Below, piece after piece: positions 9,271 to 52,111 of a stretch of 64,000 nucleotides of DNA (position 1 is the stretch's first letter; each line of letters opens with the position of its first letter). A model generated the notes under the pieces. The model was not told the DNA's origin and ran no database searches. It saw nothing but the letters and a program-made list of their open reading frames with translations. The translations under genes and the position numbers were made by a program. The stretch is from Mustelus asterias (Eukaryota), in contig NW_027590140.1 of the NCBI RefSeq assembly GCF_964213995.1, positions 372,001-436,000 of the forward strand. The letters are read 5' to 3'.

Positions 9271-10875
9271 TCGATAAGGGAAGTTATTTTCGAGACATTG
9301 CAACAGTGACTGCATTGCGAAAGTACCAGATTGGCTGTCACATGCTTTAGGATAACTCGTGGTGCTGAAATGTATTTGTTTCCAGTTTCCAATTCTCCAA
9401 AATTGATAAGCTTTTAATGATTTATCTGAGGAATTTGCTGCTGATAATGAACACTATAAAGCGCTAAAAGTTTTTCTTCGTCTCGAAAGCTGACGTCACA
9501 CGAAGTGTTGGTGTTTCATATGCCCTGTTAAAACATTTCCCCTTCTCTGTTCTGATTTTGATTCGTCTACTTTATGTTTCAATTGCTTCAAATGGAATTA
9601 GATAATCTGATCATCAGAATGAATTTAGGAGCGGAAATCTGTGGTCTCAGTAGCATTTGCAGTAGCTGAATATTTTTCCATGAATCATCTTCAGCAGAGA
9701 ATTACACATCCTTACACTCGGTCACTGTTTCTATCAGGAGTTACATGGAGATGGGAAACTACCGTTAGAACCGGAAGTGCACATGTATCTGACTGAGGTC
9801 ACTGGGACCGCAACAGCCAATCTCAGGTTATGACAGCAGCGAGAAGCTCCGCCTCCCGACCTCGCTTTATAATAACGTTAGCGGTTAAACTGACAACGGT
9901 GCATTTTTTTTTCCTCAAGGAATCTTCATTCGGGTAAAGGTGACAGAGTGAGCATTTCATTCATTGGAAGACTGATTTTGCAAGTTATGGTCACAGCGAG
10001 GACGTAAGCTAAAAAAAAAACTCTGCTGAACAAGTGCTAACTGAAAGTTTAGCAGAATTGTCCATAAGTCAAACTAGAAACTTATAAATCCCTTTGAATG
10101 TGTGTAATATTAATCCCGGATTCTAAAAATCCTGCATGAACTAAACATTGATGAAAGATCCGTTATTTATAATATATTCCCTGCAAGTTATCAATGTGTG
10201 TCACATTCTGTGTTCGCTATGACGTACATACGACGTCAGTGAACTTCAATATATTGCTGTTAAACAAAAGGAATTCGAGTTTTCAGCAGTGTCAGTGATT
10301 ACTGTGCGTTCACACACACTCAGTGTGTGAATCGCGGCATTGTGCATTGATATCATTGAATGATAAATGTTACTTCCTTCTGAATATCATTATCCCGTTT
10401 GAAATTTCAATCTTTGCAGTTTGTGCATTTGGATCAGTTACTGTCCGATTGTCAGGAGACTGGTGGCTGTACCCTACGCCAAACACAGAATGTCATGACA
10501 TATGAGCGGGAGCAAGAGACACCGAGCCTCAATACTGGTAGAACCAGCGGTGACATATTGTCAGTGTCTGCAGGTTTCTAAGTAAATAGGCGTAAAGACA
10601 AACAACAATGTGGTTATTCGGTATCTGTGCAATGTTTGGAGCGTTTATTACAGGTAATTAATTTGAGTGCAATTTTGAACTAAACGTGAACAGTACTTGG
10701 GGTAAAACGTGAACACTGTGGGGTAAAATAGTAAAATCTACATGTTTAGATTTGTAAACGATACCATAATTTGGTCTTTCTATGTCAGGTTTCGTGAAAA
10801 TTGCATTGGCGTCGAATTTGCAGCCAACACGCCGTCACCCTGATTAAGGATGCCATGTTGATCGTTATTGTGTCA

Positions 10876-10949
10876 GTCGCTGTGGCACAATTGGTTAGCG
10901 CGTTCGGCTATTAACCGGAAGGTTGGTGGTTCGAGTCCATCCAGGGACG
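10876..10949 (+). tRNA. tRNA-Asn body with ATT anticodon (probable pseudogene)
   Basis: Full-length Asn sequence with loop CT-ATT-AA; mismatches in acceptor and D stems; T-tract downstream. Confidence 0.75.
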
Positions 10950-23419: not shown

Positions 23420-23975
23420 AAAAGGTAAGTGTCGATATTGAGCAGAGAATAGATGCGTTTGTGCAAGGAATGCATAAGCTGGGATGTCGGTGCAGGCAAT
23501 GATTGGAAGGAAAATTGCATTTCGGTCTTTACTAACGGCAGACTGGAGTCCAAGTATAACGAAGTGTTGCTGAAGTTGCACAAGGTTTTGTTGAGACCAC
23601 GTGTTGAATATTCTGTGCAGATATGATATTCACATTTAATAAAGGATATGTTTGCATTGGAAACGGTGCAGATAAGGTTCAGCAGATGATCCCTGGGATG
23701 ATGGAGTTGTCGTATGATGAGAGGCTGAGGAAATTGGGCTGGAAGTCTCTGGAGTTTGGAAGAATGAGAGGCGATTTCATTAAACCTACAAAAGTCTGAT
23801 TGGGTTTGACAGGGTGGAGGCTGAGAGAGTTCTTCTGCTTGTCCGGAAATCTAACCCACGGCAGTTCAGTCTCAGGAAAATGGGCTGATCATTTCGGCCT
23901 AAGAAAAGGCGAAATTACTTCACTGAAATGGTTGTGAATCTTTGAAATTCTCTATGCCAGACAGTTATGGAAGCT
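23420..23975 (+). mobile_element. Old CR1 ORF2 3' fragment (paralogs 42920-43560, 57080-57760)
   Basis: Degenerate LRPHVEYSVQ/RGD motifs. Confidence 0.7.
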
Positions 23976-27266: not shown

Positions 27267-27356
27267 GGGCTTGTCTGGGATTTGAACCCAGGGCCTCTCC
27301 CAAACTTGCAAATCATAACACACAAAGCGAGAATCATGTCCCTAGACCAACGAGCC
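27267..27356 (-). tRNA. Intron-containing tRNA-Pro body, anticodon reads TGT (probable pseudogene)
   Basis: GGCTCGTTGGTCTAGGGACATGATTCTCGCTT-TGT-G[TGTTATGATTTGCAAGTT]TGGGAGAGGCCCTGGGTTCAAATCCCAGACAAGCCC. Confidence 0.8.
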
Positions 27357-28467
27357 ACTGCTGCAAGATCGGCCCCAAGACAGATATTATATTTCCATAT
27401 CAATCTGATCTGACAACTGCAGTGCAAGTGGGAAAAACTCAGGAAGCCAGGCAGCATGTGCACACAGGGAAAGGAATCTCCTCTTACACCTTCATAACTT
27501 TTCTTTTCAACTGGTAAAGGTAGGAAATGTAGGAAGTTTTAAACAAGTGAAATCCAGGAGGTAGAAAGCATAACAACAGGAAAGGGCTCTGATAGGGTAC
27601 AATTCAGGAGTGATAAATGAACAAGTACTGTGTTGTCCATGGCCTGAGAGTGAGGAAAGCAGAGTATCACAGAATGTTTGCACCGCAGCATGAGACCATT
27701 CACAAGATCTTTGAAGCAGTCGCGTGTCCTGTGGATAATAGGGAGCCGTTGGGTGTACTGTACAGTGATTACACAGGAGCTGCAGTGATGAGGTTGGTGG
27801 ATTTTGGAAATTGAGAGGAACACATGAGCAGCTTGTGTGACTATTTCACCTCATTGCCGCTTTTATACGGCAGCGAAAAGTAATCGTTGTTGCCACTGGA
27901 TGAAGGACTAACTTATGTTCAACCTGAACAGAACATTTTGAAAGAGAGACTTGCCTCTGGTGGAAATAGATCTGAGATGAAAATAATGAAATATAAAATG
28001 AAGTAAATTAGATTAAACATCCAACGTATTAGAAATATTGGGACGTCCAACCTATTAGAAATATTGGGTTTACAGTAAGTGACATGAACTGATGCTGTGA
28101 TCGCAGATATAGAACTGGGACCACCATCACACCGAGTGAATCCGCTGTCTGTTTAAATGTTGATCAATGAAAACTTTTAATTATATTGCACAATGGAACA
28201 TACGGGAACTCAGTCAATAAGCACCTTTCACTCACAAATAACAGAAAAGGTCAATTTCATCTCGCAACTTTCAGCCTTTTGCCATCTTCTGTACATTTAC
28301 CATGAAGATTTATAAAGTAAGTGAATAGAGTTTGTGATGGTGAAAAAAAAAACGCGTTCACACCCTTGGGATACGGAAGCACAGTGACGCACACAGAGGA
28401 GCAAACATAAGTATAGACCACGCGAGACAGAGGACTAACGAGCGACAAAACGGGAGCGGAGCAGAAA

Positions 28468-28539: not shown

Positions 28540-28931
28540 TCCGCGCTTAATTGCTTTTTTTTCAATTAAAACTGCCCTTCATTGACTGGAAAGTGCTTTG
28601 TGACGTCTGCAGGTCGGGATAGGTTCTATATAAATGCAATTATTTCATGATCTTCATTCCAAGTCCTCTGTTACTGAGCCCAGTCAGTGGGAACAGTCTG
28701 TCCCTCCCTGCTCTTTCAAACGGCCCTTTTCCATGTTAGGAGAAGGGATTAACCATTACACCACAACAACACTGTGGGGTAAAATAATAAAATATACATG
28801 TTTAGATTTGTAAACGATGCCATCATTTGGTCCTTCTGTGTCAGGTTTGGTGAAAATTGAATTGGCGTCTAACTTGCAGCCAACACGCTGTCACCCTGAT
28901 TTAGGATGCCTTGTAGGTTCCAGTTGTGTCA

Positions 28932-28948
28932 GTCTCTGTGGCGCAATT

Positions 28949-28981
<33 letters not shown>

Positions 28982-29005
28982 ATGGTTCGAGACCATCCAG
29001 GGACG
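28932..29005 (+). tRNA. tRNA-Asn(GTT), apparently intact
   Basis: Canonical body; T stem GATGG/CCATC fully paired; TTTT terminator follows. Confidence 0.92.
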
Positions 29006-31037
29006 GCGTTTTCAGTTTTTTTTCCACTCCATCTGCTTTCATTGTCTCTCGGTTTTTGAGTGTCACTGAGTCCTTGGGCAACATTTAAAAAAAAACTTAT
29101 CGTGTGTTTCTGCCTCTACTATTAGCCGACGTTAGTTTATTGAACATTTATCTCTGACATATTATTTGTAACAATTTATATATTTCAAAATTATTAAACT
29201 CAATAACTGAACTCGAAACTTTAACCTATGTTTGATCTTGGGTTTCCATTTTCCTGCCCATTCCTCTTCTTTCTCAGATAGATCAGGAATCTGTCTGTCC
29301 CAACCTGAAATGTGTTCATTGAGGGAAATACACAGCAAGTCGGCAAAGATCAGTGGAATGAGGACTGAGTTAAACTTTCACCAGAATGCTGCTTTTATAA
29401 TTGAAAAGTCCTGAGATTGAGAGCAGAGGGTTCACATTTGAGGCGTTTCAGTTCTTTGAGAGATGAATGCCTGCCGTGTTTTACAAGGTACGTTTTCACA
29501 GGATCAGTAATGATGAGGTTGGTGGGTTTTGGAAATTGAAAGTTACACGTGAACAGCTTGTGGGACTATTTCATTTATCATTGCCGTCTTGCCGTTTTAT
29601 GTTCTGATAAAACCTGTATTTATAATACAAGCATGAGATGGTGGAAATTCTCAGCAGGTTTGGCAGAATCTGTGCACACGCATCAAATTCTAAACACTTC
29701 CATGTGTCACCTGTGTTCCTGAAGTATACTGATCCTTGTGTTCAAAAAAAGTTGATAAAAACTTTTCAAAGCAGCTGCCCCATCTCTAAGTGTTATTAAA
29801 TATCAAGGAATCACATTATCTCACAGCCATGTGGCATTTACACTCCCCCAATGCTTGAATAATATTCTGCAACTGCATTCATGGAGAAAGAGATAAAATT
29901 CGGGACAAATGTTATTTTCTGAATCTTATGTTAGATCAATGACTCTGGCACATGGCTAAGGTTTGCAACCGAATTATATTTCAATAAAACAAGGATTTAA
30001 ATTGCAATCAGACTGCACGGTTTGATATTCTCGGCCGGTCACATTGGTCATGAGCAGAGTTTCTGGATTGTCGGAGTTAACATGTTCATTTCATATACGA
30101 TGAGTTCCCCGATTCAAAATAAGGTCGAAACATTATCGAAATTAATATTTTTTTGAATTTTCCCCGATTCTTGATCGCTGTTGCATATGAACTGGATTGG
30201 AGCAGACAAAATGTAAATTTGTTCTTTACCATTTATTGAAAAAGAATACCCTCAGCAAAGTCGCCGCTGGCATACTGTTGCTTTTCTGCTTCCACTGTCA
30301 CACTCACGATGCAGCTGATGCAGGCTAGATGGCTCAGCCATGGCAAATGAGTGATGTTCCGGTTCGACAATGGCAAAAGTGCCTCAGCAAGGTACTCTGG
30401 GCTTACATTTTCTGGTTAATGTTTCAGCCATTCATGACTGAGATATGGAGATATTTCTTCACTCCAAGGCTTGTGAATCTTTGGAATTATTTGACTTATT
30501 ATTGTCACATGTATTAGCATACAATAAAAAGCATTGTTTCTTGCGCGCTGTACAGACAAAGCATACCGTTCATAGAGAAGGAAACGAGAGAGTGCAGAGT
30601 GTAGTGTTACAGTCATAGCCGGGATGCTAGAAATTGAATTGAAGCATTGTGAGAGAGTTTAAAAGAGTTAGAATGAAGTTTTAGAAGCATAGAACGAGAG
30701 TAAAAGATAGAGTTAGAAGGTATGCTGGGCACAGCTTCCAAGAGTTCGCCTCGCTCGGACGCCATCTTGCATCAATTCTGTAGCGGCACAGAGGTTTGTG
30801 AATCTTCAGTTGATGAAGACTTTGAGGTGGAGAGTTGTGGGAATCTAAGTGAATGAAGGGCTGTTGGTATAAGCTGGGAAATTGGGATTGAGGCTGTGGA
30901 TCTGCCTTGATTCAGTCATGGAGGAGGCTCAATGGTTCATGTGACCCAATTCTACTCCATTGATGCTGTTCATTGGCAATACCAGATACGGCATCAATAG
31001 GTTCTGCTGGTACCATTGATGAGCTCAGGGCAGTAAT

Positions 31038-31237
31038 GATGTGGAGTTTCCGGCGCTGGACTGGGTTAGGCACAGTAAATAATCTCACAGCACCAGGTTA
31101 AAGTCCAACAGGTTCATTTGGTAGCACAAGCTTTCGGAGCACGCCCCTTCATCACGTGAGTCACCTGATTCGGACAGTGCTCCGAAAGTTCGTGCTACCA
31201 AATAAACCTGTTGGACTTTAACCTGGTGCTGTGAGAG
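31038..31237. mobile_element. Palindromic Penelope pLTR remnant (paralog of 12958)
   Basis: ~75-bp inverted arms CTCACAGCACCAGGTTAAAGTCCAACAGG... / ...CCTGTTGGACTTTAACCTGGTGCTGTGAG. Confidence 0.85.
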
Positions 31238-31408
31238 AACTGACTGGGCAGTGATAGTAGTTGAAGCGTGTGATCGAATCTCATCCAGTTCCTTAACTTT
31301 ATGAAATACCTTTGTTATCACACAAATTCCAACGGAACGCAAATGTAAATTATTGTTTGCAATTGATGGGTTTGTGGAACCAGTTTCCTTGAATCATTGC
31401 ATCGCAAT

Positions 31409-31480
31409 GTTTCTGTGGTGTAGTGGTTGTCACATTCGCCTTACACACGAAAGATCCCTGGTTTGATCGCGGCAGAAATA
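31409..31480 (+). pseudogene. tRNA-Val(TAC-reading) pseudogene
   Basis: Paralog of 13309; damaged anticodon stem and T arm. Confidence 0.7.
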
Positions 31481-31547
31481 CTTTCATCATAAACAGAAAA
31501 GGTTGGAAGGTCTAATGAGACATGACAGCATCTGTGGAGAGAGGAAA

Positions 31548-31588
31548 GAGCCAAATTTTCAAGTCTGGATGACCCTTCGTCAGAGCTC
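31548..31588 (-). ncRNA. Minimal hammerhead ribozyme motif, family 2
   Basis: GAGCT-CTGACGA-AGGGTC-ATCCA-GACTT-GAAA-AT-TT-GGCTC. Confidence 0.6.
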
Positions 31589-32649
31589 CGGACTCGAAAC
31601 GATGGCTCTATTCTCTCTCGACAGCTGCTGTCAGACCTGCTAAGATTTTCCAGCATTTTTCTATTTTTGTTTTAGGTTCCAGCATCCGCAGTATTTTGCC
31701 TTCACAAAAAAAAACAAAAGCTTTTAATTTCAGAGGGATTCGACTACTGGAATTATTTGCGCGTTTGTCACTAAACATGAACTGACCGACTGAGTATTCC
31801 TAGTATTTTCTGATTGTAAAGTGAGGAATCACTGAGCGAAAGGGAAAAAAAAGGATTTTTGTGATAGGGCACAAAGCAGGATGGATTACATGACACCATG
31901 AATGGTGGAAAAGACAACATCGAGGAAGTGATGGTGGAGCCTGGGTGGTCTAGTGGTTCAGAGTCAATGTTTCCATAGCTATGGCCCGGAATTGATGATA
32001 AACTGTTAACTAAACAGAGCACTTTGCTCAGCACGGACTGACTTTCTGGAGATGAAAGTATCTGAACATAAAGGAAGAAGGCATAATTTGCTTCAGTTGG
32101 TCATAAGATGTTAGAATGACTGTGTGACAATGTCAGTAGCAAAAGTGACTTGAAATGAAGCGGTGGAGACAGAGATGGTTATCAAAGAATTTCAAATCTC
32201 TAATATTAGCTTTCCTGGCATGCCGTGGTCAGGTTTCATCGCCATGTTCCACGTTGGAGTACCAGGCAAGTAGCGAATAACTTCTTATTTAACTCTTCAT
32301 TAAACGAAAGCACGCCTCACAGTGTCTGTTAAGGGAGAAACAAGATCAATCTTCAGCTGTATGAATTGTATTAGAGCCGGAAAAATCAGAGATGTAACAA
32401 TAACAAACTGTGAAGAAGAATGACACGGCAGACATTTATCACAAAAACAACTGACACACATGTCAAATTCTTCCTCTTTCAAGTCTCATCGATTGACTCC
32501 TTGTTCTCCACCTCGGATATTTCCACTTCCATCAAATATCACCCACCTGAAAATTCAATCTCTTCTTCGCTCCACTGATGATGATACACCAACTCCACGC
32601 TGGGCGCAGGAATTGGCTCCAATGCTCAGTGGTTGCATCAGTTGGACAG

Positions 32650-33363
32650 TTTAAAGTTTATTTATTAGTGCCACAATTAAGCTTACTTTAACACCGCAAT
32701 GAAGTTTCTGTGACAATTACGTCATCGGCAGAACCGGCACCTTCTCGGGTAAATTGACAGCTAATTTAGCATGGCCAATGGACCTAACCAGCACATCTTT
32801 CACTCTGTGGGAATAAGAAGGGGCACCCGCAGGAAACCCACGCAACACGGGGAAAGCATGCAGACTCTGCACAGACAGTAACCAATGCCGGGAATTGAAA
32901 CCGGGCCCCTGGCGCTGTGAGGCATCAGTGCCACCATGTTGCCCAGAAAGATCTTATCTTGTTCATAAACGGAGAAAGAGCAGACAATGTTTGTGAAGGT
33001 GACCTAGTTCATTTTTAATTGATTAGAAATGGATGTCGCTGCCGGCCAGCATTTATTGCCCATCCTGGTTGCCCTGGGACAGTTAGGATCAAACACTTTA
33101 CTGCAGCTCTGGAGTCAGTGTAGGCCAGGCCGGATAAGGGACGGCAGGTTTCCTTCCGTAAAGCACATTACCGAACTCAATGTTTGTTTTTCCGACAATC
33201 GACAATGGTTTCATGGTCATCAGTAGATTCTTAATTCCAGATAGTTTTTATTGAAAAACAATTCTACAACGTGCCGTGGCAGGATTCAAAAGCGGGGCCC
33301 CATAAAATTGGATGAGTTTCTGGATAAATAATCTCGCGATAATATCACCAGGCCATCGTCTTT
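32650..33363 (-). mobile_element. HE1 SINE + second SINE (paralogs of 14560-15257)
   Basis: Colinear with the unit A copies. Confidence 0.8.
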
Positions 33364-34023
33364 CCTAATATAAGCGTTTGTCTTGAGAGATTTGGGTGTG
33401 TTTGTACAAGGAACGCAGGAAGATAGCATGGTGGTGCAGCAAACAATAGGAAGGGAATAGCATTTTGGTTTTTATTGCCAACAGATTGCTGTAGAAGAAT
33501 AAAAACACCAATTTACATTTATACAGGGTTTTGTTGGGAGCAAGTGTGAAATATTCGGTGCAGTTCTGATATCGACAATGCTTTTTATTTTCGAAAAAGG
33601 CTACCCTTCCATCGGAGACGGTCCACTGGGTAGGTTCCTGTGATGAGAGAGTTCTCCTGGGATGAGAGGCTGTGTAAATTGTGCTGAAATTCCCTGGAGT
33701 TTAGAAGACTGAGAGACAATCTTATTGAACCTACAGAATACTGAGACATTGTTTCCCAGTCTCAGATGAGGACTCATCGGAGAACTGACACACAAACACA
33801 TCCAGCCAAGACTCTAATTCTTAACTTTAATTGCATATTTGAAATGAATATATATTATACCATGTGATATGGATGATATGAATATTCATTAAATAAATAA
33901 TGTTGACAACACCTGACAACAGTCGAGCGGCAACACTCGAGAAATATTTTTATTGTTGCCTCTGTTCACAAGCCGGAACTGCGCGACAATGAATGCTTAT
34001 GGGGAAAATAAAAGTACAACCAC

Positions 34024-34096
34024 CGCCTCTGGATGGTACTGAGCCACCAAACATTTGCTTAAAGTCGAACGCAATAACGAATTCCGCAATTAAGAC
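34024..34096 (-). pseudogene. tRNA-Asn pseudogene
   Basis: Paralog of 15915. Confidence 0.6.
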
Positions 34097-34479
34097 GAAG
34101 ACACTCTATATTAGGGTGTCAGCAAGTGCTGTTATATATCCAACCCCAATTTTCTTTTTTAAAAACATAGTCGAGAACTACAACATGACCACATCGTTTA
34201 CAATACTATGCAAACCCCTTTGACGACTTTACCCCCCACAGTGTTGCAGCGATTTAGGGGTTTCCCGCTTCTCCCAACATGGGAAAGGGCCGTTTGATAG
34301 AGCAGAAAGGGACAAACTGTTTCTATTGACGATTGTCAGTAACCAAAAATTGGGACTGAAGGTAATTTATGAAAGACAGAATTGTATTTATGCGACGCCT
34401 TTCCCGGTTGGTGGACGTCACAATGCGCTTTGCAGCCAAAGAAAGACAACCACAACTGAAACTAAGACAAAGACAAGGA

Positions 34480-34551
34480 CGGGGGCACTCGGAATTGAAC
34501 CGATGGCCGTTTGATCTGCAGTCAAATGCTCTACCACTGAGCTACACCCCC
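34480..34551 (-). tRNA. tRNA-Cys(GCA) variant (G73, T-stem mismatch)
   Basis: Paralog of 16375; discriminator base changed. Confidence 0.8.
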
Positions 34552-36838
34552 TCAGCTGTGAACTGATGCTCGGGATCCAGCATAGTCTTATTAAGTGGTG
34601 GAGGGGGTTCCAGTGGTCAGACTGCATCACGCTTTGTCTCAGAGTTACTGGTTTCTGAGTGAAGTCGGAGAGCTCAGCGTTTAAGTTAGCGAGATGTTTT
34701 CTTGTGATTTGGCTGAGATTTGGATCCAGGACGAGGAGATGTTTGTGTCAATCTAACCGATAAAATCAACCCCATTTGTCATGCAGATTTGAACTTGTAT
34801 CCCCATCTCTATTGGCAGCGCTTTGCAGCCTATCACTGTCCTTCACAATCTGTGTTTGTTCTTGAACTGTTGCCCATGTGACATTTCCAATTCGGACACA
34901 AAACTATAGATCTAACTCCATTGCTTCTGACAGAGCTGTTTTCGATCAGGAAACAACTCAGGTCTCTTACATGGATTATCAAAAACTTTAAATCTTAGCA
35001 TATTGAAGCCGATCAATGACCCTGAAAGCGCCAAATCCGAAGCACTGGACCACGAGGATTTCATTCTCCTGGTTCTCCCATAGACTGAATGCAGGAATTC
35101 CACAGTGCCAATTATTCACAGTCGCATTCTCCTTCCAGTCTTGTACACGTTGTTCAGCTTTGAAAGTATTCATCTTTTCACATTAGCTTCCAGTGTGATG
35201 AAAGCAGATCAGTGATGAGCTGAAGTTTTTCAACAGATTTACCACAATAAGGTTTATAACAAACATTACTCTTTGAATGTGGTGAGCTACAGTGAAATTT
35301 AATGCAGTAGAAGGTAACTCACTCATTCTGACAGTCGGTACCAGCAATTGCAATGTAAATATGATGTCGAGATACCGGGTTGGACTGGGGTGGGCACAAT
35401 AAGAAGACTCACAGCATCATGTTAAAGTCCAACAGGTTCATTTGCTCCGATAATAAAATCAATTTGCTTTATGTTATCAGCGCCCCGAAAGCTCCTGACT
35501 CCAAATAGACCTGGTGTTGTAAGACTTCCTTATGTAAATATGAATTGTTGTGGGTAATTGACAGGATTGTGGAATGGGGCAGATTTTTCCTTCTTCCTGT
35601 TCAACCTGCCACAAGCATCGCTCCCGTTTTCGACCAGGGAGCAATACCCACTCTCCTTAATTCATGTGTTGCACGAGAGCAATGAATCATCATTCCCTAA
35701 CCGTGAATCGAACCCAAACCATGGCAGTTAAAGAAGCGAATTCTATCGACGAAACCAACACGGAAATTGAAGTGACCTGAGCATTATTGAGCAATTGTGG
35801 GCGTGTGTGTGCGTGTGTGATTAGGGAGAAAGGTCACGTGCTCTCGGGTGATCCCTGCTGAGTGAAGCCTCCGATCTCTTTATCGCTGAGCGTTTTGTGT
35901 TCTTGAGAAATCGTCCTCTGGGGCTGATGCAATGAGGCCAGGAGAGTAACTCACTGCACCGTCCGCAATGTGATTGCGGTGCGATTTGCTGAAAGCTGTT
36001 AATTTTATAAAAATAATCTTTTTGCGAATTGTAAATGAAATGCCCTTCAGTACCCGGTAAGAATTCTCACAACACCAGGTTAAAGTGCAACAGGATTGTT
36101 TGAAATCACGAGCTTTCGGAGCGCAGCTCCTTCATCACTCACGCTGAGGATTCACCACATTTTTCTGTCTTTGAATGAAAGCAATAGATATCTCGTCAGT
36201 TCCCCGGTATCCTGAGTGTACGACACTGATTTCAACAGTACACTGATTTAAATGTTTGTTTTCAATGTGAAATTAAGTAGTTTGATTCCATGTGAAGGAT
36301 TTACATTTACACTCTTCCGGGAAGATTGTGACGTAGTGGTAAAATCAGTGGAGTATGAATCCTGTGGCCCAGTCTCACAGGTCACGATCCCACCACAGTC
36401 TAGAACTGAAACGGAAGTGAAAGCTAGTCTCAGTAATGAAGCTTTGTTTTCCGATTGTCATGAAAACACATCTTGCAGAAGGAAATCTGCCATCCTTCTC
36501 CTTTCTGGCCTCCATGGGACTCCAGAGGAAAGGCAATGTGATTGACTCTTAACTGCCCTCTGAAATGGCCCAGCAAAATACGCAGTTCAGTGGGAAATAG
36601 GGGTGGACAACAAATGCTGGCATTGACAATGAAATATATATTGCATTAGCAGCAGTTTAAGAAATGATTAATTCTCATTTTGTTTCATTTCATGTCAAAC
36701 AGGGTGACATATTCTGGTGTCTTAAGATTTAAAACCTCAACCTTTCAACTGTTCAAACAGGGAAGATTCAGTCAGAGAAAAGTAATCCACTGTGATCCAA
36801 AACTAGGTTTTTTAGTTGCTGCGAATCCCACCTCAAAA

Positions 36839-38189
36839 ATCCCATTTCTGGATAGAAATGGTTCGATCAATCAGACGCAGCATGGATACATGAGGGGAAA
36901 GTCGTGCTTGACGAACATGTTGGATTTTTATGAAGATGTGACTAGGGCGGTTGATGGAGGAGAACCGGTGGATGCGGTGTTTTTGGATTTCCAAAAGGCG
37001 TTTGATAAAGTGCCCCATAAAAGGCTGCTGAAGAAGATTAGAGCACACGGAGTTGGGGGTAGTGTGTTAAAGTGGATTGGGGACTGGCTATCCGACAGGA
37101 AGCAAAGAGTCGGAATAAATGGGTGTTTTTCCGGTTGGAGGAAGGTAACTAGTGGCGTGCCGCAGGGATCGGTACTCGGGCCGCAACTGTTTACCATTTA
37201 TATAGATGATCTGGAGGAGGGGACGGAGTGTAGGGTAACGAAGTTTGCAGACGACACAAAGATAAGTGGAAAAGTGAATCGTGTGGAGGACGGAGAAGAT
37301 CTGCAGAGAGATTTGGACAGGCTGAGTGAGTGGGCGAGGATATGGCAAATGGAGTATAACGTTGATAAATGCGAGGTTATACACTTTGGAGGAAATAATA
37401 ACAAATGGGATTACTATCTCAATGGAAACAAATTAAAACATGCTACCGTGCAAAGGGACCTGGGGGTCTTTGTGCATGAGACGCAAAAGCCCAGTCTGCA
37501 GGTACAACAGGTGATCAAGAAGGCAAATGGGATGTTGGCCTATATCGCGAGGGGGATAGAATATAAAAGCAGGGATGTCTTGATGCACCTGTACAGGGCA
37601 TTGGTGAGGCCGCAGCTGGAATACTGTGTGCAGTATTGGTCCCCTTATATGAGGAAGGATATATTGGCATTGGAGGGAGTGCAGAGAAGGTTCACCAGGT
37701 TGATACCGGAGATGAGGGGTTTGGATTATGAGGAGAGGCTGAGGAGATTGGGTTTGTACTCGTTGGAGTTTAGAAGGATGAGGGGGGATCTTATGGAGAC
37801 TTATAAGATAATGCGGGGGCTGGATAGGGTGGAGGCGGAGAGATTCTTTCCACTTAGTAAGGAAGTTAAAACTAGAGGACACAGCCTCAAAATAAAGGGG
37901 GGTCGGTTTAAGACAGAGTTGAGGAGGAACTTCTTCTCCCAGAGGGTGGTGAATCTCTGGAATTCTCTGCCCACTGAGGTGGTGGAGGCTACCTCGCTGA
38001 ATATGTTTAAAGCGCGGATGGATGGATTCCTGATCGGTAAGGAAATTAAGGGTTATGGGTATCAGGCGGGTAAGTGGTACTGATCCACGTCAGATCAGCC
38101 ATGATCTTATTGAATGGCGGGGCAGGCTCGAGGGGCTAGATGGCCTACTCCTGCTCCTATTTCTTATGTTCTTATGTTCTTATGTTCTT
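36839..38189 (+). mobile_element. Young 5'-truncated CR1 (RT domain to 3' tail), present only in unit B
   Basis: Open frame [41 protein letters not shown]; (TTATGTTC)n tail; empty site CCTCAAAACAG in units A and C; AAAA TSD. Confidence 0.96.
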
Positions 38190-38668
38190 AAAACAGAAAA
38201 TGTTGGAAGCACTCATCATCTTCAACAGCTTCTGTGGAGCGGGAAAGAGAGTGAATGATTCAGGTTGCTGACCTTTGACCCTAACTGGAAAAAAGTAGTG
38301 ATTGAATGGTTTACAAACAATTACAGAGTCAAGGAAAATAGAGAGGGAGAGGAGGAAAGAACAAACGGTCTTTTGATCGGATGGAAGGCTGGAGTGATTG
38401 AACTACAATGGAGATGATTATTGTTCCCACTGACACAATCTCGCAGATCTGGGTTTAAATCTCATAATAAATGAGAACAAAACCTCTCGCTGAGTTCAGC
38501 GCTAAACTCCCGCCTTCCAGTGAACTGGAGGCAGTTTTCAGTCACAAACCCACAACTCTGAGATGAACAACGCAGAAAGGAGAAAGACTCAGTTTGAGCG
38601 GTGACACTTCTGGAGGAACGGAGATCTGGAATTCACTCAGGAATGAGGCAAAGTTTAGAAATCAATGT

Positions 38669-38741
38669 CGCCCAACGTGGGGCTCGAACCCACGACCCTG
38701 AGATTAAGAGTCTCATGCTCTACCGACTGAGCTAGCCGGGC
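38669..38741 (-). tRNA. tRNA-Lys(CTT), intact
   Basis: Identical to 19191-19263. Confidence 0.97.
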
Positions 38742-39556
38742 ACACGTACTCGAATGCTTTCCATAACCTAAAATGCATGGAGACAAATACGGTTTTTCCA
38801 CCTGGTGTCTCAGCTTGTTCTGATTTCAAAGTTTACAATGAATCCACCGACAGAATCCCCAATTCCTATCCATTCATCTCAATCATTACTTACATTATTC
38901 ACATCTTCCAATTCTTAGCTTCACCTCTCCCAAATATTCCAAACTCCTCTTACGTCATTCACCTTATTTTTCTTTGTTCTTAATAATTTAGCCAGGGGTG
39001 GAGGGAACTCAACATTTACACTGTTCAACTGTTTCCCAGTTTCCGACTTTTCAACAAGATCACCTATGATTATTCTAAACTCCAGAGCGAGCAGACTCGT
39101 CCCACTGATTCTCTCCTCCCAGGAGAAACTCATAAATCAATCCAGTGAACCTCGGTTACACACAGACAGCTAAATAATGGACAGAGCAAGGAGCAAAAGA
39201 TGTCAACGTAATAAAAACATCGTCAGTGAGTCTGAGGGAGATATATAGAGACAATGAAAAACAGAAATAGCGAGTGCGGTACACAACCACAATCCAAGAA
39301 TGAATAACAATAATCACACAGCTAGCTGTCTCAACCAACAAACATGGGGTCCTCTAAACTGGTGAACAGAGATCAAGTGAATGGCCACAAGCATATTAAC
39401 CTTTTAATGTCTTGATTTTCTTGTGTGAGTGTTGTGTTGATAGATTGCCTGCTATCTGTGCTCAGGTTCTCAAACCAAATCCCACGTAAACCAATCCTAA
39501 CGTTTGCACTGAAAAAACCTATGACTTGTCCAATACGAAACAACAGCTGATTGAGT

Positions 39557-39646
39557 GATCGAGCCCAGCATGTGAACCAGCGATCGCTCACACGTTTGTG
39601 GATGTTTACGTCCCAGGCCCGAGTCATACCTCTCGCCCAACGAGCC
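39557..39646 (-). pseudogene. Intron-bearing tRNA-Pro pseudogene
   Basis: Paralog of 20091; 18-nt insert. Confidence 0.65.
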
Positions 39647-42600
39647 GCTGCTGAGGATGCTGTTCAATGAAAATATTTCCATTGGCATCCAAAGCTGCTC
39701 AGATTTCTGCAGTGAAAGGTGAAAATGCTGGAAAAAATCAGAAAGCCAGACAGCTTGTGTGCACAGGAAAACGAATCTTATATTTTAGCTCCATAAACTT
39801 TCATTGGGAATAACAGGGAATTTTGAGAAATGGAGGAAGTTTTAAACAAATGTTATCCAGCAGCATAACAAGAGGGTTTGAGGCCTCTTGCCGGGTGGAA
39901 ATCAGGAGAGATTAAATGAGGGAAACAAAGAATTTTAAAGTAATTACACCACAGAATGGGGCCATTCCTCAGTCCCTTACAGGACTCAGTTGTGTTGTGG
40001 ATGAAGGGGAACCTGTCGATGTAATGTACGTAGATTGCATTGGAGCCACAGTGATGAGTTGGGGGGTTTTGAAAATTGAAAGTTACACTTAGGAACATAG
40101 AATTAGGAGCAGAAGTGGCAAATTCACCCCTTCGAGCCTGAACCGTCATGCAATCAGTTCATGACTGATCTCTCCCTGTTCTCAAGTCCATCTCCCTACC
40201 TGTTCCAATATCCCCTCATCCCTTTAATTATCAGGAATATATCTGTCTCTTTCTTGAAATCATTTAATGATTCAGACTCAACCGTGTTATGGGGCAATGC
40301 ATTCCACAAATTCACGACCCTCAGTGAGAAGCAGTTCCTCCTCATCTCAGTTTTAAATCTACCACCTCTCAACGTATACATTTGACATGGTGTTCGCGAT
40401 TGCGCAGAAGAAAAAAGATTTCTTCAATCCTATTTAGAATTTTATACACCACGATCACTTCAGCATCTTGTGGGACTATTTCACCTGAATGTGGGTTTCA
40501 TTTCGTAGCAAGCACAATCGGTGTTGTCATTAGCTGAAGCAGTCACTTATGTTCCATCCAAACTGGACACATTAAGGGATATATGGTAAGTCATTTTGAA
40601 AAACACAGTTCACCCGTGGCCCTGGGAGTCCAGTGGGTTGTATTCAGTACTCCCCAGTGTTGTTTGTTTTCAATTCCCGCTCAGGAAACGATTATTTATA
40701 GCTCTCGGCAAACTATTAAAAAATAACCTGATTTACTATCTGATCGAAAGCAGATCTACCAATATCAGCCGAGTGAGTTTTGCAAGTCTACATCACAGCT
40801 GCAAATGTCACATGTGCAACAGGTCAAGAACAAACACAGTAGCAGAAAGATAGTGATAGGCTGGAAAGCGCTGAGAATAGAGATGGTGATGGAAGATAAC
40901 ATTTGGATGGTAAAAAGGTCAGATTTTGGCGTTCACACTGAATTATTCAACTTTTCCCTCACTCTGCAACGAAAATATTTGGGAAAGATTCTCTCTCGTT
41001 TCAAACAGTCGAAAGTGGAATTAATAACTGTAAGTGGAATGTCTGTTGTATGTTGTCACTGATTGAATGTATCAATGGGATGGAAACAGAAGGTGCCGTA
41101 TTGCAACAGAGACTTGCTTGTGGTGAATGTAGTCTGGCCTGGCGCGAAAAATAAAGCAATACATGCAGTGTGTGTAAAGCAAGTTGTAAAACAGGCGAAA
41201 AGCAGCTGGTCTGGTGGTTAGAGTTTGACACTTTCACTGCTGTTTGGATTGGTGGTCAGGTAATGGACATTTGTTGCTCCCATCCAAACCGTAAAAACAA
41301 ATGTCAGTTATTGCCTTGTGGAACATATAAAACACAATCTCGCCTCATGTCCTGAAGTGAAGACTGAGCAAATTCAACAGGAGGTTTTTTCTTGTCATTT
41401 CTGGCAGGATAGTGGGAACCAGACAAGGTTAAGGGCAGTTTAAATGATGCTGGTCCTTCACTGCAGCTCATTCTGTTTCTGACTGGATGTGATTCCTGCT
41501 TGTTACAGAGTTCAGGATCAATTGATTCAGTAAAGGAGCAGGCTCAAGCCGACTGATGGACTGTCGCAGCTCCATTGCTGCTAATTTCAATAACGATACC
41601 AGTAAAGGACACAGCTGCTTACATGGTAACGTAGCCGAGTAATCTAAGCCAGTGGCTGAAGGTCCAGTCTCTACGGAGTTGTTGTGTTCGACTGCAGCCA
41701 CTGCCAGAATGGGTTTGAGTTTTGGTCCCTGCAGTTGAAGTCCAGCATTTCAGATTGAATGCAAGAGTTTGTGCCGTGTCGTTTTTGGCATGAAGAAAGA
41801 GGGGCGATAGAGCAATGTGAACAGGTGTTGAGGTAAAGGAACGAGTGTGGAAGGACTGGAGCAAATTATCGTGGATTCTGGAATCGGAAACAAAAAGAGA
41901 AAATGCTGGAAAATCTCACCAGGTCTGGCAGCATCTGTAAGGAGTGAAGAAAGCTGACATTTCGAGACCAGATGACCCTTTGTCAAAGCTGGGAGGAGTG
42001 GAACTGCTCCGATAGAGAATATAAACGGGAACACCGGTTGAATGGCTGTCTGTCGAAATAAACAGCAGGATTGCAAACATTGAGACTGCAGTCCCGGCCC
42101 AGGGGATGGATTGGGATTTTCTAACTGAGGTTCAAATCCTATCATGTGCGCTTCCCGTCATTCCTCATTGTGACTTTTTTTTAATTGAAAGTTATTGGAA
42201 ATGAAGCAATGGGTGCAGAGATGATCAACTCACTCCATATTTGTCACATCAGCGTCACTGAGGGTCTAGTGATCAGCGTCGGCGCCGTGACGCGGTTTCG
42301 ATTCCCAGTCTCGGAGTGAATAAATTTTTGTTCATTTCTTCATTCAATAAAAGCAGCGTCCGTGAAGGGAACAACAAGCTAAATCTTCCAGCTGGATGAA
42401 CTTGTATCAGAGCTGGAAAAATCAGAGATGTAACATTAACGATAAACTCTGAAGAAGAACCACATGTCACACACAACATACATGTCAAGTACATACACAA
42501 TACACATGTCAAATCATGTCACTTTCAACTTCTGTCTTTTAACTTCCGGCTCTCCACCTCAGACATTTCCACATTCATCAAAAATCTCCGTCCTCAAACC

Positions 42601-42660
42601 CCATCCTGGTCCTCAATCCACGGATAATGCTGCACTTAGTGGCAGCTCCTTGCAGCATTT

Positions 42661-42733
42661 GGCTCCTTATCTCAGTGGTTAGAGCACTGGTCTTGTAAAC
42701 CAGGGGTCGCGAGTTCAATTCTCGCTGGAGCCT
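42661..42733 (+). tRNA. tRNA-Thr(TGT), near-intact
   Basis: Canonical except position 7 and G10>T in the A box/D stem. Confidence 0.82.
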
Positions 42734-43985
42734 ACGGGCAAAGTTTAGCTGATAGAAGCTGTCGGAAAGGGGAAGAGAGTCTAAAAGTCAAACAAGAGAT
42801 AAGTCGAGGTTCAGATCGGGTGTGATTTTGGAAAGCGAAAAGATATGTCCTTCTTCGGAAAAAAATCGAAAGAGCAGGACATATTTGAAGAGCTGAAATA
42901 GGTTAGTGTCGATATTGAGAATAGAATAGATGCATTTGTACAAGGAATGCATGAAGCTGGCATGTAGGTGCAGGCAATGATTGGAAGGAAACTTGCATTT
43001 TAGTCTTTATTGACGGCAGACTGGAGTCCAAGTATAACGAGGTGTTGCTGCAGTTGTACAGGGTTTTGTTGAGACCACATGTTGAATATTCTGTGCAGAT
43101 ATGATATTCACATTTAATAAAGGGTTTATTTGCATTGGAAACGGTGCAGATAAGGTTCAGCAGATGATCCCTGGGATGAGGGAGTTGTCGTATGATGAGA
43201 GGCTGAGTAAATTGGGCTGAAAGTCTCTGGAGTTTGGAGGAATGAGAGGCGATTTCATTAAACCGACACAAGTCTGATTGGGTTTGACAGGGTGGAGGCT
43301 GAGAGATTTCTTCTGCTTGTCGGGAAATCTAACCCACGGCAGTGCAGTCTCAGGGAAATGAGCTGATCATTTCGGCCTAAGATAAGGCGAAATTACTTCA
43401 CTGAAATGGTTGTGAATCTTTGAAATTCCCTATGCCCGACAGTTATGGAAGCTCCATCATCGAATACATTTAAGGTTGGGATAGACAGGTTTCTGGCCTC
43501 TCGGGGAATTCAGGGATATGGGGAGCTGGTGAAAAACTGAGTTGTACCCCAGGATCAGCCATAACAAGCTATTTTATTCAAATAACCAAGAACTTTAAGG
43601 AAACAAGTAAAACATGTTAATTAAGGTACTGCCCTTCATTGACTGGAAAATGCTTTGTGACGTCCGCTGGTCGGGATAAGTTCTATATAAATGCAAATAT
43701 TTCATGATCTTCAATCCTAGTCCACTGTTACTGAGCCCTGTCAGTGGGAACAGTCTGTCCCTCCCTGCTCTATCAAACGGCTGTTTTCCATGTTAGAAGG
43801 GATGAACCATTACACCACAACAACACTGTGGGGTAAAATAATAAAATATACATGTTTAGATTTGTAAACGATGCCATCATTTGGTCTTTCTGTGTCAGGT
43901 TTGGTGAAAATTGAATTGGCGTCTAACTTGCAGCCAACACACTGTCACCCTGATTTAGGATGCCATGTAAGCTCCATTTTTGTCA

Positions 43986-47918: not shown

Positions 47919-48327
47919 TGAATCGACCTACAGAATCCCCAAGGTTCCTATCCCTTCCTCTCAATCATCAATTACATCATTCACATATTCCAAATCTTCG
48001 CTTCACCTCTCCCAAACATTCCGAACTCCTCTTACACAATTCACCTTTTTTTGTTCATAATAAACTAGCCTGGGGTGGGGGGAACAGCCTCTCAGCATGG
48101 ACACTGTCAAACTGTTTTCGAGTTTCAGACTTTTCAATAAGATCACCTCTGATTATTCTAAACTCCAGAGCGAACAGACTCATCCCGCTGAATCTCTCCT
48201 CCCAGGAGAAACGCAGAAATCAATTCAGTGAACCTCGGATGCACAGAGACATAGAACATAGAACAGTACAGCACAGAACAGGCCCTTCGGCCCACGATGT
48301 TGTGCCGAGCTTTATCTGAAACCAAGA

Positions 48328-51231
48328 TCAAGCTATCCCACTCCCTATCATCCTGGTGTGCTCCATGTGCCTATCCAATAACCGCTTAAATGTTTCTAAA
48401 GTGTCTGACTCCACTATCACTGCAGGCAGTCCATTCCACACCCCAACCACTCTCTGCGTAAAGAACCTACCTCTGATATCCGTCCTGTATCTCCCACCAC
48501 GAACCCTATAGTTATGCCCCCTTGTAATAGCTCCATCCACCCGAGGAAATAGTCTTTGAACGTTCACTCTATCTATCCCCTTCATCATTTTATACACCTC
48601 TATTAAGTCTCCCCTCAGCCTCCTCCGCTCCAGAGAGAACAGCCCTAGCTCCCTCAACCTTTCCTCATATGACCTACCCTCCAAACCAGGCAGCATCCTG
48701 GTAAATCTCCTCTGCACTCCTTCCAGCGCTTCCACATCCTTCCTATAGTGAGGTGACCAGAACTGCACACAATATTCCAAATGTGGTCTCACCAAGGTCC
48801 TGTACAGTTGCAGCATAACCCCACGGCTCTTAAACTCCAACCCCCTGTTAATAAAAGCTAACACACTATAGGCCTTCTTCACAGCTCTATCCACTTGACT
48901 GGCAACCTTTAGAGATCTGTGGATATGGACCCCAAGATCTCTCTGTTCCTCCACAGTCTTCAGAACCCTACCTTTGACCTTGTAATCCACATTTAAATTT
49001 GTCCTACCAAAATGAATCACCTCACATTTATCAGGGTTAAACTCCATTTGCCATTTTTCAGCCCAGCTTTGCATCCTATCTATGTCTCTTTGCAGCCTAC
49101 AACAGCCCTCCACCTCATCCACTACTCCACCAATCTTGGTGTCATCAGCAAATTTACTGATCCACCCTTCAGCCCCCTCCTCTAAGTCATTAATAAAAAT
49201 CACAAAGAGCAGAGGACCAAGCACTGATCCCTGCGGCACACCGCTAGCAACCTGCCTCCAATCCGAAAATTTTCCATCGACCACCACGCTCTGTCTTCGG
49301 TCAGACAGCCAGTTACCTATCCAATCGGCCAACTTTCCCTCTATCCCACACCTCCTCACTTTCATCATAAGCCGACCATGGGGGACCTTATCAAACGCCT
49401 TACTAAAATCCATGTATATGACATCAACTGCCCTACCTTCATCAACACACTTAGTTACCTCCTCAAAAAATTCTATCAAATTTGTGAGGCACGACTTGCC
49501 CTTCACGAATCCGTGCTGACTATCTCGGATTAATCCGCATCTTTCTAAATGGTCGTAAATCCCATCCCTAAGGACCCTTTCCATCAATTTACCAACCACC
49601 GAAGTAAGACTAACCGGTCTATAATTACCAGGGTCATTTCTAGTCCCTTTCTTAAACAGAGGAACAACATTCGCCATTCTCCAGTCCTCTGGCACCATCC
49701 CCGTGGACAGCGAGGACCCAAAGATCAACGCCAAAGGCTCTGCAATCTCATCCCTTGCCTCCCAAAGAATCCTAGGATACATTTCATCAGGCCCAGGGGA
49801 CTTATCGACCTTCAGTTTATTCAAAACTGCCAAGACATCCTCCCTCCGAACATCTATTTCCTCCAGCCTATTAGCCTGTAACACCTTCTCTTCCTCAAAA
49901 ACATGGCCCCTCTCCTTGGTGAACACTGAAGAAAAGTATTCATTCATCACCTCGCCTATCTCTACTGACTCCATACACAAGTTCCCACTACTGTCCTTGA
50001 CCGGCCCTAACCTCACCCTGGTCATTCTTTTATTCCTCACATAAGAGTAAAAAGCCTTGGGGTTTTCCTTGATCCGACCCGCCAAGGACTTCTCATGTCC
50101 CCTCCTAGCTCTCTTAAGCCCCTTTTTCAGCTCATTCCTTGCTAACTTGTAACCCTCAATCAAGCCATCTGAACCTTGTTTCCTCATCCCTACATAAGCT
50201 TCCCTCTTCCTTTTCACAAGACATTCCACCTCTTTTGTGAACCATGGTTCCCTCACTCGGCCATTTCCTCCCTGCCTGACAGGAACATACCTATCAAGGA
50301 CATCCAGTATTTGTTCCTTGAAAAAATTCCACTTTTCATTAGTTCCTTTCTCTGACAGTTTCTGGTCCCAACTTATGCCCCCTAATTCTTGCCTAATCGC
50401 ATCATAATTGCCCCTCCCCCAATTGTAAACCTTGCCCTGCCGTACGGCCCTATCCCTCTCCATTGCAATAACAAAAGACACCGAATTGTGGTCACTATCT
50501 CCAAATTGCTCTCCCACAACCAAATCTAACACTTGGCCCGGTTCATTTCCCAGTACCAAATCCAATGTGGCCTCACCTCTAGTCGGCCCATCCACATATT
50601 GTGTCAGGAAACCCTCCCGCACACACTGCACAAAAACTGCCCCATCCAAACTATTTGACCTACAAAGGTTCCAATCAATATTTGGAAAGTTAAAGTCCCC
50701 CATGACAACTACCCTGTGACCCCCACACATATCCATAATCTGCTTAGCAATTTCTTCCTCCACATCTCTATTACTATTTGGGGGCCTATAGTAAACTCCT
50801 AGCAACGTGACCGCTCCTTTCCTATTTCTAACTTCAGCCCATATTACCTCAGTGTGCAGATCCCCCACGAAGTGCCTTTCCGCAGCCGTTAAACTATCCT
50901 TGATTAACAATGCCACTCCTCCACCTCTTTTACCAGCTTCCCTACACTTAGTGAAACATCTATACCCCGGAACGTCCAACAACCATTCCTGTCCTTGTTC
51001 TACCCACGTCTCCGTAATGGCCACAACATCGTAGTCCCAAGTACCAATCCACGCCCCAAGTTCATCTACCTTGTTCCGGATGCTCCTTGCATTGAAGTAG
51101 ACACACTTCAACCCACCTTCCTGTCTACCAGTACCCACCCTTGACCCTGATACCTTCCCCAATACCTCACCACCCTCACTGACTTCTGGACTACAACTCC
51201 CTTTCCCACTCCCCTGACAATTTAGTTTAAA
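48328..51231 (-). CDS. CR1 ORF2: APE endonuclease + reverse transcriptase, uninterrupted
   Basis: YFNARSI, AITETW, MGDFN, LDLV, SDH (EN); [33 protein letters not shown] (RT). No ATG before the EN domain; start placed at the proposed slip site. Confidence 0.93.
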   Translation of the reverse strand, partial: FKLNCQGSGKGSCSPEVSEGGEVLGKVSGSRVGTGRQEGGLKCVYFNARSIRNKVDELGAWIGTWDYDVVAITETWVEQGQEWLLDVPGYRCFTKCREAGKRGGGVALLIKDSLTAAERHFVGDLHTEVIWAEVRNRKGAVTLLGVYYRPPNSNRDVEEEIAKQIMDMCGGHRVVVMGDFNFPNIDWNLCRSNSLDGAVFVQCVREGFLTQYVDGPTRGEATLDLVLGNEPGQVLDLVVGEQFGDSDHNSVSFVIAMERDRAVRQGKVYNWGRGNYDAIRQELGGISWDQKLSEKGTNEKWNFFKEQILDVLDRYVPVRQGGNGRVREPWFTKEVECLVKRKREAYVGMRKQGSDGLIEGYKLARNELKKGLKRARRGHEKSLAGRIKENPKAFYSYVRNKRMTRVRLGPVKDSSGNLCMESVEIGEVMNEYFSSVFTKERGHVFEEEKVLQANRLEEIDVRREDVLAVLNKLKVDKSPGPDEMYPRILWEARDEIAEPLALIFGSSLSTGMVPEDWRMANVVPLFKKGTRNDPGNYRPVSLTSVVGKLMERVLRDGIYDHLERCGLIRDSQHGFVKGKSCLTNLIEFFEEVTKCVDEGRAVDVIYMDFSKAFDKVPHGRLMMKVRRCGIEGKLADWIGNWLSDRRQSVVVDGKFSDWRQVASGVPQGSVLGPLLFVIFINDLEEGAEGWISKFADDTKIGGVVDEVEGCCRLQRDIDRMQSWAEKWQMEFNPDKCEVIHFGRTNLNVDYKVKGRVLKTVEEQRDLGVHIHRSLKVASQVDRAVKKAYSVLAFINRGLEFKSRGVMLQLYRTLVRPHLEYCVQFWSPHYRKDVEALEGVQRRFTRMLPGLEGRSYEERLRELGLFSLERRRLRGDLIEVYKMMKGIDRVNVQRLFPRVDGAITRGHNYRVRGGRYRTDIRGRFFTQRVVGVWNGLPAVIVESDTLETFKRLLDRHMEHTRMIGSGIA

Positions 51232-51617
51232 CCCCCCTGAAGAGCCGTAACAAATTTCCCTCCGAGGATATTGGTGCCCCTCTGGTTCAGGTGCACCCCG
51301 TCCTGTTTGTACAGGTCCCACCTTCCCCAGAACGTGTTCCAATTATCCACGTATCTGAAACCCTCCCTCCTACACCATCCCTGCAACCACATATTTAACT
51401 GCACTCTCTCCCTGTTCCTCAACTCGCTATCACGTGGTACCGGCAACGTACCAGAGATGACCACATGTTTCGTCTTGGCTCTCAGCTTCCAGCCCAGCTC
51501 CAGAAATTCCTGCTTTAAATCCCCGTCCCTTCTCTTACCTATGTCATTGGTACCAATGTGCACCACGACTTGTGACTGTTTCCCCTCCCCCTTCAGAATC
51601 TGGAAAACACGGTCTGA
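51222..51617 (-). CDS. CR1 ORF1 C-terminal SGNH esterase domain (5'-truncated)
   Basis: VVVHIGTND...DGVHLN motifs; ends QGGLN*. Confidence 0.9.
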   Translation of the reverse strand, partial: SDRVFQILKGEGKQSQVVVHIGTNDIGKRRDGDLKQEFLELGWKLRAKTKHVVISGTLPVPRDSELRNRERVQLNMWLQGWCRREGFRYVDNWNTFWGRWDLYKQDGVHLNQRGTNILGGKFVTALQGGLN

Positions 51618-52022
51618 GAATGAATGAAGACTGCAAGGATCAAAATCGGTCAACGTAATAAAAACACAGTCAGAGACACTGACAGATTCTGAGGGAGATA
51701 TATAGAGACAATGAAAAACAGAAATAGCGAGTGAGGTACACATCCACAACCCATGAATGAATAACAATATACACACAGCCAGCTGCCTGAACCAACAAAC
51801 ATGGGGTCCTCTAAACTGGTGACCAGAGATCAAGTGAATGGCCACAAGCATATTCACCTTTTAATGTCTTGATTTTCTTGTGTGTGTTGTGTTGATAGAT
51901 TGCCTGCTCTGTGTGCTCAGGTTCTCAAACCAAATCCCACGTAAACCAATCCCACCGTTTGCACTGCAAATACATTTACAAAACCTTTGACTTTTCCAAT
52001 ACGAAATGACAGCTGAATGAGA

Positions 52023-52111
52023 CCTCTTGCTTGGCCTGTGAACCCAGGACCTCTCGCAAGTTGGTGATGTTAACACCTTCAGCCCGAATCATACCCCTCG
52101 TCCAACGAGCC
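52023..52111 (-). pseudogene. Intron-bearing tRNA-Pro pseudogene
   Basis: 17-nt insert TGTTAACATCACCAACT before TGCGAGAGGTCCTGGGTTCA. Confidence 0.7.

Follow-up and report, generated by a model that had tools for sequence, protein, structure and literature searches.

Probable intron-bearing tRNA-Pro and tRNA-Arg-TCG gene families in the genome of the shark Mustelus asterias

Most of the tRNA-Pro gene copies that we found in Mustelus asterias, with anticodons AGG, CGG and TGG, and nearly all of the tRNA-Arg-TCG copies bear short inserts that are likely ordinary introns of the TSEN/RTCB type and predicted to be spliced, and judging from gene sequence we put the probability that they form a functional family at roughly 0.78. 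The initial annotation of the window (the whole stretch of 64,000 nucleotides analysed here) had proposed that this lineage has or had a spliced tRNA-Pro family; the genome-wide data support the proposal and sharpen it to 'likely has', where splicing is a step that we infer. They also go beyond it, in that the family spans three anticodons, makes up most of the Pro copies found, and is paralleled by Arg-TCG.

In the proposed pathway RNA polymerase III would transcribe these genes from their internal A and B boxes, starting a few bases upstream and stopping in the T-rich trailer. Bases 32-35 would then pair with intron positions -3 to -6, with intron bases -2 and -1 and base 38 bulged out as three unpaired nucleotides, TSEN would cut both sites, and RTCB would join the exons into a tRNA identical to the product of an intronless gene. 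The large clusters that house the intron genes contain several isotypes and are inferred to change continually as copies are duplicated and decay; in the weakest and frankly speculative step, drawn by analogy with zebrafish, they might be active mainly in the germ line or oocyte.

Decayed tRNA-Pro copies in the window

The window belongs to a tRNA cluster of several isotypes, made of duplicated blocks, within a 3.68 Gb genome, and it contains the four minus-strand Pro bodies with 17-18 nt inserts just where the initial annotation placed them. The copy at 27267-27356 is a decayed gene of the TGG 18-nt class with its anticodon changed to TGT, and its 18-nt insert (27303-27320) has a G at -3 and an A at -4 able to pair with U32 and U33. 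Compared with one of the genome's own intronless Pro genes, which serves as the reference for all four counts given here, it has 8 exon changes; these include G19A, C40G and G68A, which damage the fold (G19 and the pairs 30:40 and 5:68 are lost), and C50T and G64A, which compensate each other. The other three are heavily decayed paralogs: one at 20091-20180 with anticodon GGG, 17 exon changes and an 18-nt insert at 20127-20144; its segmental duplicate at 39557-39646 with 22 changes and an 18-nt insert at 39593-39610; and one at 52023-52111 with 18 changes, an altered anticodon loop (AAG) and a 17-nt insert at 52059-52075, the boundary of which is the least sure of the four because the loop is altered. 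Two diverged copies begin the insert with TGTTA, as quoted earlier, and the decayed look reported for the copies corresponds to 8-22 exon changes. Where the insert begins with T, 37/38 and 38/39 are both compatible placements; classes elsewhere in the genome start the insert with C, G or A, which fixes the site at 37/38, one base 3' of the anticodon, as originally described.

These four copies are pseudogenes, decayed members of the intron-bearing Pro family, and they lack the intact mature tRNA domain that is present in that family. With introns enabled, ARAGORN recognises the 27267 gene, puts an 18-nt intron behind the anticodon and, as this reads TGT, takes the gene for Thr; in the window it misses the remaining three Pro copies even at lowered thresholds, and an Rfam tRNA scan of the window (E<=0.01) reports none of the four.

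The four copies are paralogs in duplicated blocks with alignable flanks and do not represent independent events. A block with Lys-CTT, the Pro copy and Thr-TGT (18716-23975, no strand assigned) is 92.6% identical to 38187-43453, and further identities link 19684-20985 with 51607-52873 (82.6%) and 20155-20452 with 27331-27620 (66.8%). We also note an 8-kb duplicate (10712-18722 and 28768-36838, 89%) in which the Ile-TAT (13309) and Val-TAC (31408) genes called by ARAGORN are paralogs with changed anticodons, as are Asn-ATT and Asn-GTT, and a long inverted repeat of ~1.25 kb (48252-49515 and 52904-54276, 96-97% identity) around the block with the 52023 copy. Just outside the window on the same contig lie a TGG intron gene with a truncated 3' end, 0.6 kb ahead of the window (L060, C108:371384), and a perfect AGG intron gene ~8 kb past its end (L090, C108:444025).

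The intron-bearing families across the genome

A search with the 27267 gene gave 392 candidates; the best 40 were scored, and some of these combine perfect exons with the anticodon TGG. Exact matches to motifs that stop at base 37 number 159 in the whole genome for TGG and 122 for AGG, CGG and GGG, figures that count exact motifs rather than genes, miss diverged copies and may include redundant small contigs. The size of the family excludes chance, since the exact-pattern searches returned 59, 159 and 122 matches and the reversed-pattern controls 0. Among the matches listed, the motif runs directly into exon 2 in 7/100 for TGG and 5/100 for VGG, all 12 on large scaffolds, and exact intronless junctions in the whole genome likewise number 12 (7 TGG, 4 AGG and 1 CGG), confined to C3, C4, C10 and C17. 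The intron genes are found on C71, C85 and many small contigs, so that the two kinds of gene stand as clusters versus solitary genes. In a sample of 132 distinct copies with both exons readable, chosen around search matches and not at random, 115 have an insert of 9-21 nt (18 nt in 75) and 17 have none.

The inserts fall into the classes TGG-18 (two subfamilies), TGG-13, AGG-18, AGG/CGG-14, CGG-18 and GGG-11, the last two decayed. Perfect exons occur in both TGG-18 subfamilies, TGG-13 and AGG-18, and AGG-14 comes within one change. The original proposal had turned on the existence of high-scoring intron-bearing Pro genes and on a constant insert position. At the loci examined there are 20 intron-bearing Pro genes with exons identical to an intronless gene, L090 among them, and the insert varies in length (11-20 nt) at a constant position. 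A T4 run lies within 60 nt of only 10 of the 20 perfect intron genes, which counts against function. Several further features of these clusters may be recorded. The GGG class with its 11-nt insert consists of amplified, decayed copies at L081, L082, L088, L094 and L160 (C85, C102 and C130); L049 and L058 (C71 and C106) are tandem intron-gene pairs 1.4 kb apart, and in L049 one gene of the pair has switched from TGG to CGG with the TGG-type intron retained. Among contigs from four DNA runs compared with the trailer-side flank of L061, those of one run (related organism) cover the flank in short pieces and those of the other three show no coverage.

The decay of many copies raises the question of whether the clusters are now silent heterochromatic arrays, once functional, in which copies appear intact owing to recent duplication or gene conversion, with all proline tRNA made from the few intronless genes. 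Most cluster copies are indeed damaged (exons are perfect in 17/80 and carry at least 10 changes in 20/80), 87 of 393 exon differences are CpG transitions, perfect intronless genes with clean T-runs exist for TGG, AGG and CGG, and in zebrafish embryos most clustered tRNA genes are methylated, closed and largely inactive (PMC11574265). We nevertheless consider this explanation unlikely, as perfect exons persist in several classes with flanks diverged to near background: in 12 representatives the exons are 99-100% identical, which follows from their being picked for intact exons and has as its point that each class still holds such exons, and most inter-class flanks are near the shuffled background of 50 +/- 5.5%. 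Two further observations that speak against silent arrays, the uneven drift of intron bases and the retrocopy-like inserts, are described below.

The preferred reading of spliced, functional introns draws on the pairing between anticodon loop and intron. The Pro introns themselves are short (mostly 13-18 nt) and poorly conserved, at 28-83% alike between class representatives. We compared 43 genes with <=2 exon changes, which hold 33 distinct introns that are relatives in about five classes and not independent trials. The initial annotation had called for a search for intact copies and an anticodon-intron pair, and both are found, with U32 facing a purine at -3 in 33/33 of these near-intact introns and in 49/50 when up to 6 exon changes are allowed. 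Pairs 32:-3, 33:-4 and 35:-6 are possible in 33/33 distinct introns, 34:-5 in 29/33 and 36:-7 in 2/33, and at least two of the four pairing columns break when the register is slid by one or two. Intron position -5 tracks anticodon base 34, with U34 opposite A or G in 19/21 and A34 opposite U in 10/10; C34 is paired with -5 in 0/2 near-intact CGG genes. In 20 TGG-18 genes picked on exon 1 only, pairs of genes differ on average at 12% of exon 2 positions, 13% of helix bases, 34% of intron-loop bases and 62% of the bases in the 2-nt intron part of the bulge; helix bases are held as bulge bases drift, which speaks against silent arrays.

This pattern matches the rule described for eukaryotic tRNA introns, in which a pyrimidine at 32 pairs with the purine at intron position -3, counted back from the 3' splice site, and the pair is prolonged into a short helix (PMC10275265; PMC8479045), and this supports an ordinary tRNA-intron reading. 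The Pro family has the features of a TSEN-type intron gene, namely a single insert at 37/38, a pair between base 32 and a purine at -3, and an intact mature domain. The predicted bulge-helix-loop, with 32-35 paired to -3 to -6, is seen in the minimum-energy fold of the intact L024, which forms the helix and 3-nt bulge unaided, and is absent from the minimum-energy folds of L078 and L110. In comparison with shuffles, precursor folds show no clear advantage (z -1.3 to -1.9), and we rejected folding energy as evidence.

A second isotype shows the same arrangement. Genome-wide, 83 of 84 matches to the Arg-TCG motif have an insert, the sole intronless gene being on C24, and inserts of 13-20 nt at 37/38 were read at L107, L110, L112, L121, L170, L178 and L180 (C72, C75, C85 and others). 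These genes have C32, with G at -3 in 8/8; bases 34, 35 and 36 pair in 8, 7 and 7 of 8, and 33:-4 is U.U in 8/8. In a census that covered 76 stretches of ten kb, the usual intron genes, Arg-TCT and Ile-TAT, turned up together with Arg-TCG genes with inserts, and the Asn, Gln, Gly, Lys, Thr, Trp, Val, Ser, Leu-CAG, Leu-TAA and Arg-ACG genes were intronless. No gene for Tyr, Leu-CAA, His, Asp, Phe, Ile-AAT or Arg-CCG was encountered in those stretches, and an Arg-CCG version of the Arg motif gave 0 matches. We considered and rejected G37 as a common cause of the introns, as Arg-ACG and Leu-CAG genes with G37 are intronless, and also an anticodon shift from a known intron family, as the bodies are purely Pro or Arg-TCG. 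In intact copies the Pro exons are identical to those of an intronless Pro gene in this genome, and the Arg-TCG exons are nearly so to those of the intronless Arg-TCG gene.

Because many of the clusters are assembled on small contigs without a placement and some copies hardly differ, the copy counts may be too high. That the families as a whole are an assembly artefact, or a chance insertion amplified by one duplication, is a very remote prospect, given that at least five diverged classes exist in three anticodons, that a second isotype has such inserts too and that many large scaffolds carry copies; an artefact would at most affect copy counts.

Dispersed copies and candidate retrocopies

Outside the clusters, 26 of 41 dispersed copies have the 5' end of a SINE within 70 nt downstream. 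Among intron-bearing dispersed copies the proportion is 23/32, versus 0/91 for cluster or source copies; 3 of the 23 are on cluster contigs and were classed as dispersed after their structure was seen, and large scaffolds alone give 20/29. The SINE beside many of these loci we take to resemble the shark HE1 element. Most dispersed copies have 0-7 nt of leader in common with their best source, with L134 (a leader of 18 nt) and L138 (a trailer of 80 nt) as exceptions, and the longer trailers reach as far as the T-run of the source or stop slightly short of it (50 nt in L036 and 54 nt in L063). The copies fused to a SINE or LINE therefore look like template-switch retrocopies of precursor RNA, which would imply germ-line transcription, and those with perfect exons (L063, L064 and L129) imply that such transcription was recent, the other point against silent arrays. 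SINEs landing behind real dispersed genes were considered and rejected, as the upstream flanks do not match the families.

Chimeras formed by template switching between U6 and LINE RNAs are known, together with retropseudogenes of pre-tRNA (PMC4476161). The shark copies are like the U6/LINE chimeras described there in that an RNA polymerase III transcript is fused 5' of a retroelement, and unlike them in that the fused transcript is a pre-tRNA, trailer included, and in that a full-length SINE is the usual element.

Intron retention in these copies bears on a further alternative, that the genes are transcribed and mostly left unspliced, serving as non-coding tRNA-like RNAs or as a source of fragments, or behaving as passengers in the manner of SINEs. 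The intron is kept in 32/33 dispersed copies traced to, or resembling, intron families, and the terminators are weak, both as this alternative would have it. Retrocopies made in the nucleus are, however, expected to catch precursors, as the human pre-tRNA retropseudogenes show (PMC4476161), the conserved pairing is the one that TSEN requires and shifts with bases 32 and 34, and one dispersed copy, L031, looks spliced. Taken with these points, mostly unspliced transcription seems improbable.

In L031 exactly 18 nt are absent, 43 nt of TGG-18 trailer are kept, and a reverse-transcriptase-like frame follows, which from its translation and from recall we presume to belong to a LINE. It may be a copy of a spliced precursor, as a single case that lies 5.5 Mb from intronless genes able to have converted it; the best 40 of 435 candidates contain no second intronless copy with this type of trailer. 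Two further features mark the same locus: a 354-bp inverted duplicate (L031:805-1158 and 1521-1872, 96% identical), the start of which coincides precisely with the 3' splice site at base 38, and a hairpin of 35 bp, which ends at the 5' end of the tRNA. They might record a cleaved precursor, or they might be due to chance.

Seven dispersed intronless Pro copies (L032, L074, L140, L141 and L203-L205) have their likely source on the same scaffold, 0.15-4.5 Mb away, an assignment based for most of them on short flanks; this suggests that retro-chimeras capture tRNA precursors near the site of transcription. L205 and L131 are tRNA-tRNA fusions, in which a short-trailer Pro copy runs directly into Leu-TAA-like or Arg-ACG-like tRNA sequence.

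Relation to known systems and implications

The intron-bearing tRNA families of human are Tyr-GUA, Ile-UAU, Arg-UCU and Leu-CAA (PMC10275265; PMC8479045), in agreement with the set of Tyr, Ile, Leu-CAA and Arg-TCT given as standard in the initial annotation. The shark genes are like these families in having one short intron at 37/38, a pyrimidine at 32 facing a purine at -3, a bulge-helix-loop, and intron sequences that vary among members. They are unlike them in isotype, as Pro (with three anticodons) and Arg-TCG are not listed for human in those two papers. The closest parallel for a mixed family is Arg-UCU, with four intron genes and one brain-specific intronless gene in human and mouse (PMC10485636). 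There too one tRNA comes from intron-bearing and intronless genes, with a possible tissue split, whereas the shark has hundreds of clustered intron copies and about a dozen dispersed intronless ones.

An intron-bearing tRNA-Pro exists in yeast (Pro-UGG). Introns of 24-34 nt are present in 8 of 19 Pro loci in a metagenome scan, all in bodies that are not of animal type; none of the 19 combines an animal-type body with an intron, a result uninformative on vertebrates. These non-animal introns share isotype and position with the shark genes but have other acceptor stems and are longer and unrelated, and we see no evidence of common descent.

In zebrafish, large clusters have been linked to maternal-type tRNAs and solitary genes to somatic-type ones (bioRxiv 10.1101/869651). 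The shark resembles these maternal and somatic sets in having large clusters and few solitary genes for one anticodon, and differs in that the clustered set is marked by an intron, whereas the preprint reports no sequence signature. By this analogy one may entertain a two-tier supply, in which hundreds of clustered germ-line genes that need splicing are complemented by about a dozen intronless somatic genes, for both Pro and Arg-UCG. We hold this only tentatively and think it doubtful as a whole. Intronless genes exist for all three Pro anticodons, and the intron genes are therefore not needed, which counts against the preferred reading.

Our search of full-text papers found no report on introns in tRNA-Pro or Arg-TCG genes of sharks or other vertebrates. 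GtRNAdb may already list such introns, because elephant-shark tRNA predictions exist (PMC8450103); a term search of the supplements of PMC8450103 and PMC9858662 found no fish or shark tRNA tables. On the best reading, what is known here is the mechanism, and what would be new is the vertebrate repertoire, with two isotypes outside the human and mammalian set.

On the practical side, gene finders mis-call such genes (ARAGORN names intron-bearing copies as Thr, Ala, Gln, Phe or Arg). The intron also makes it possible to tell whether reads come from the clustered genes or from the solitary ones. Intron bases that switch with anticodon bases 32 and 34 provide a natural covariation test of the TSEN recognition rule, and the families offer a natural system for the open question of how eukaryotic tRNA introns are gained, kept and lost (PMC4090602). 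Should the two-tier supply be real, TSEN would act as a gate on the decoding of proline codons in the egg and the early embryo. The introns would then stand either for a gain within vertebrates that was extended to three anticodons or for an ancestral condition that mammals have lost. On the basis of human and mouse, four families of intron-bearing tRNAs are usually listed for vertebrates. If a jawed vertebrate does have two further families, spread over many diverged classes and accompanied by intronless twins, the set would not be a fixed one.
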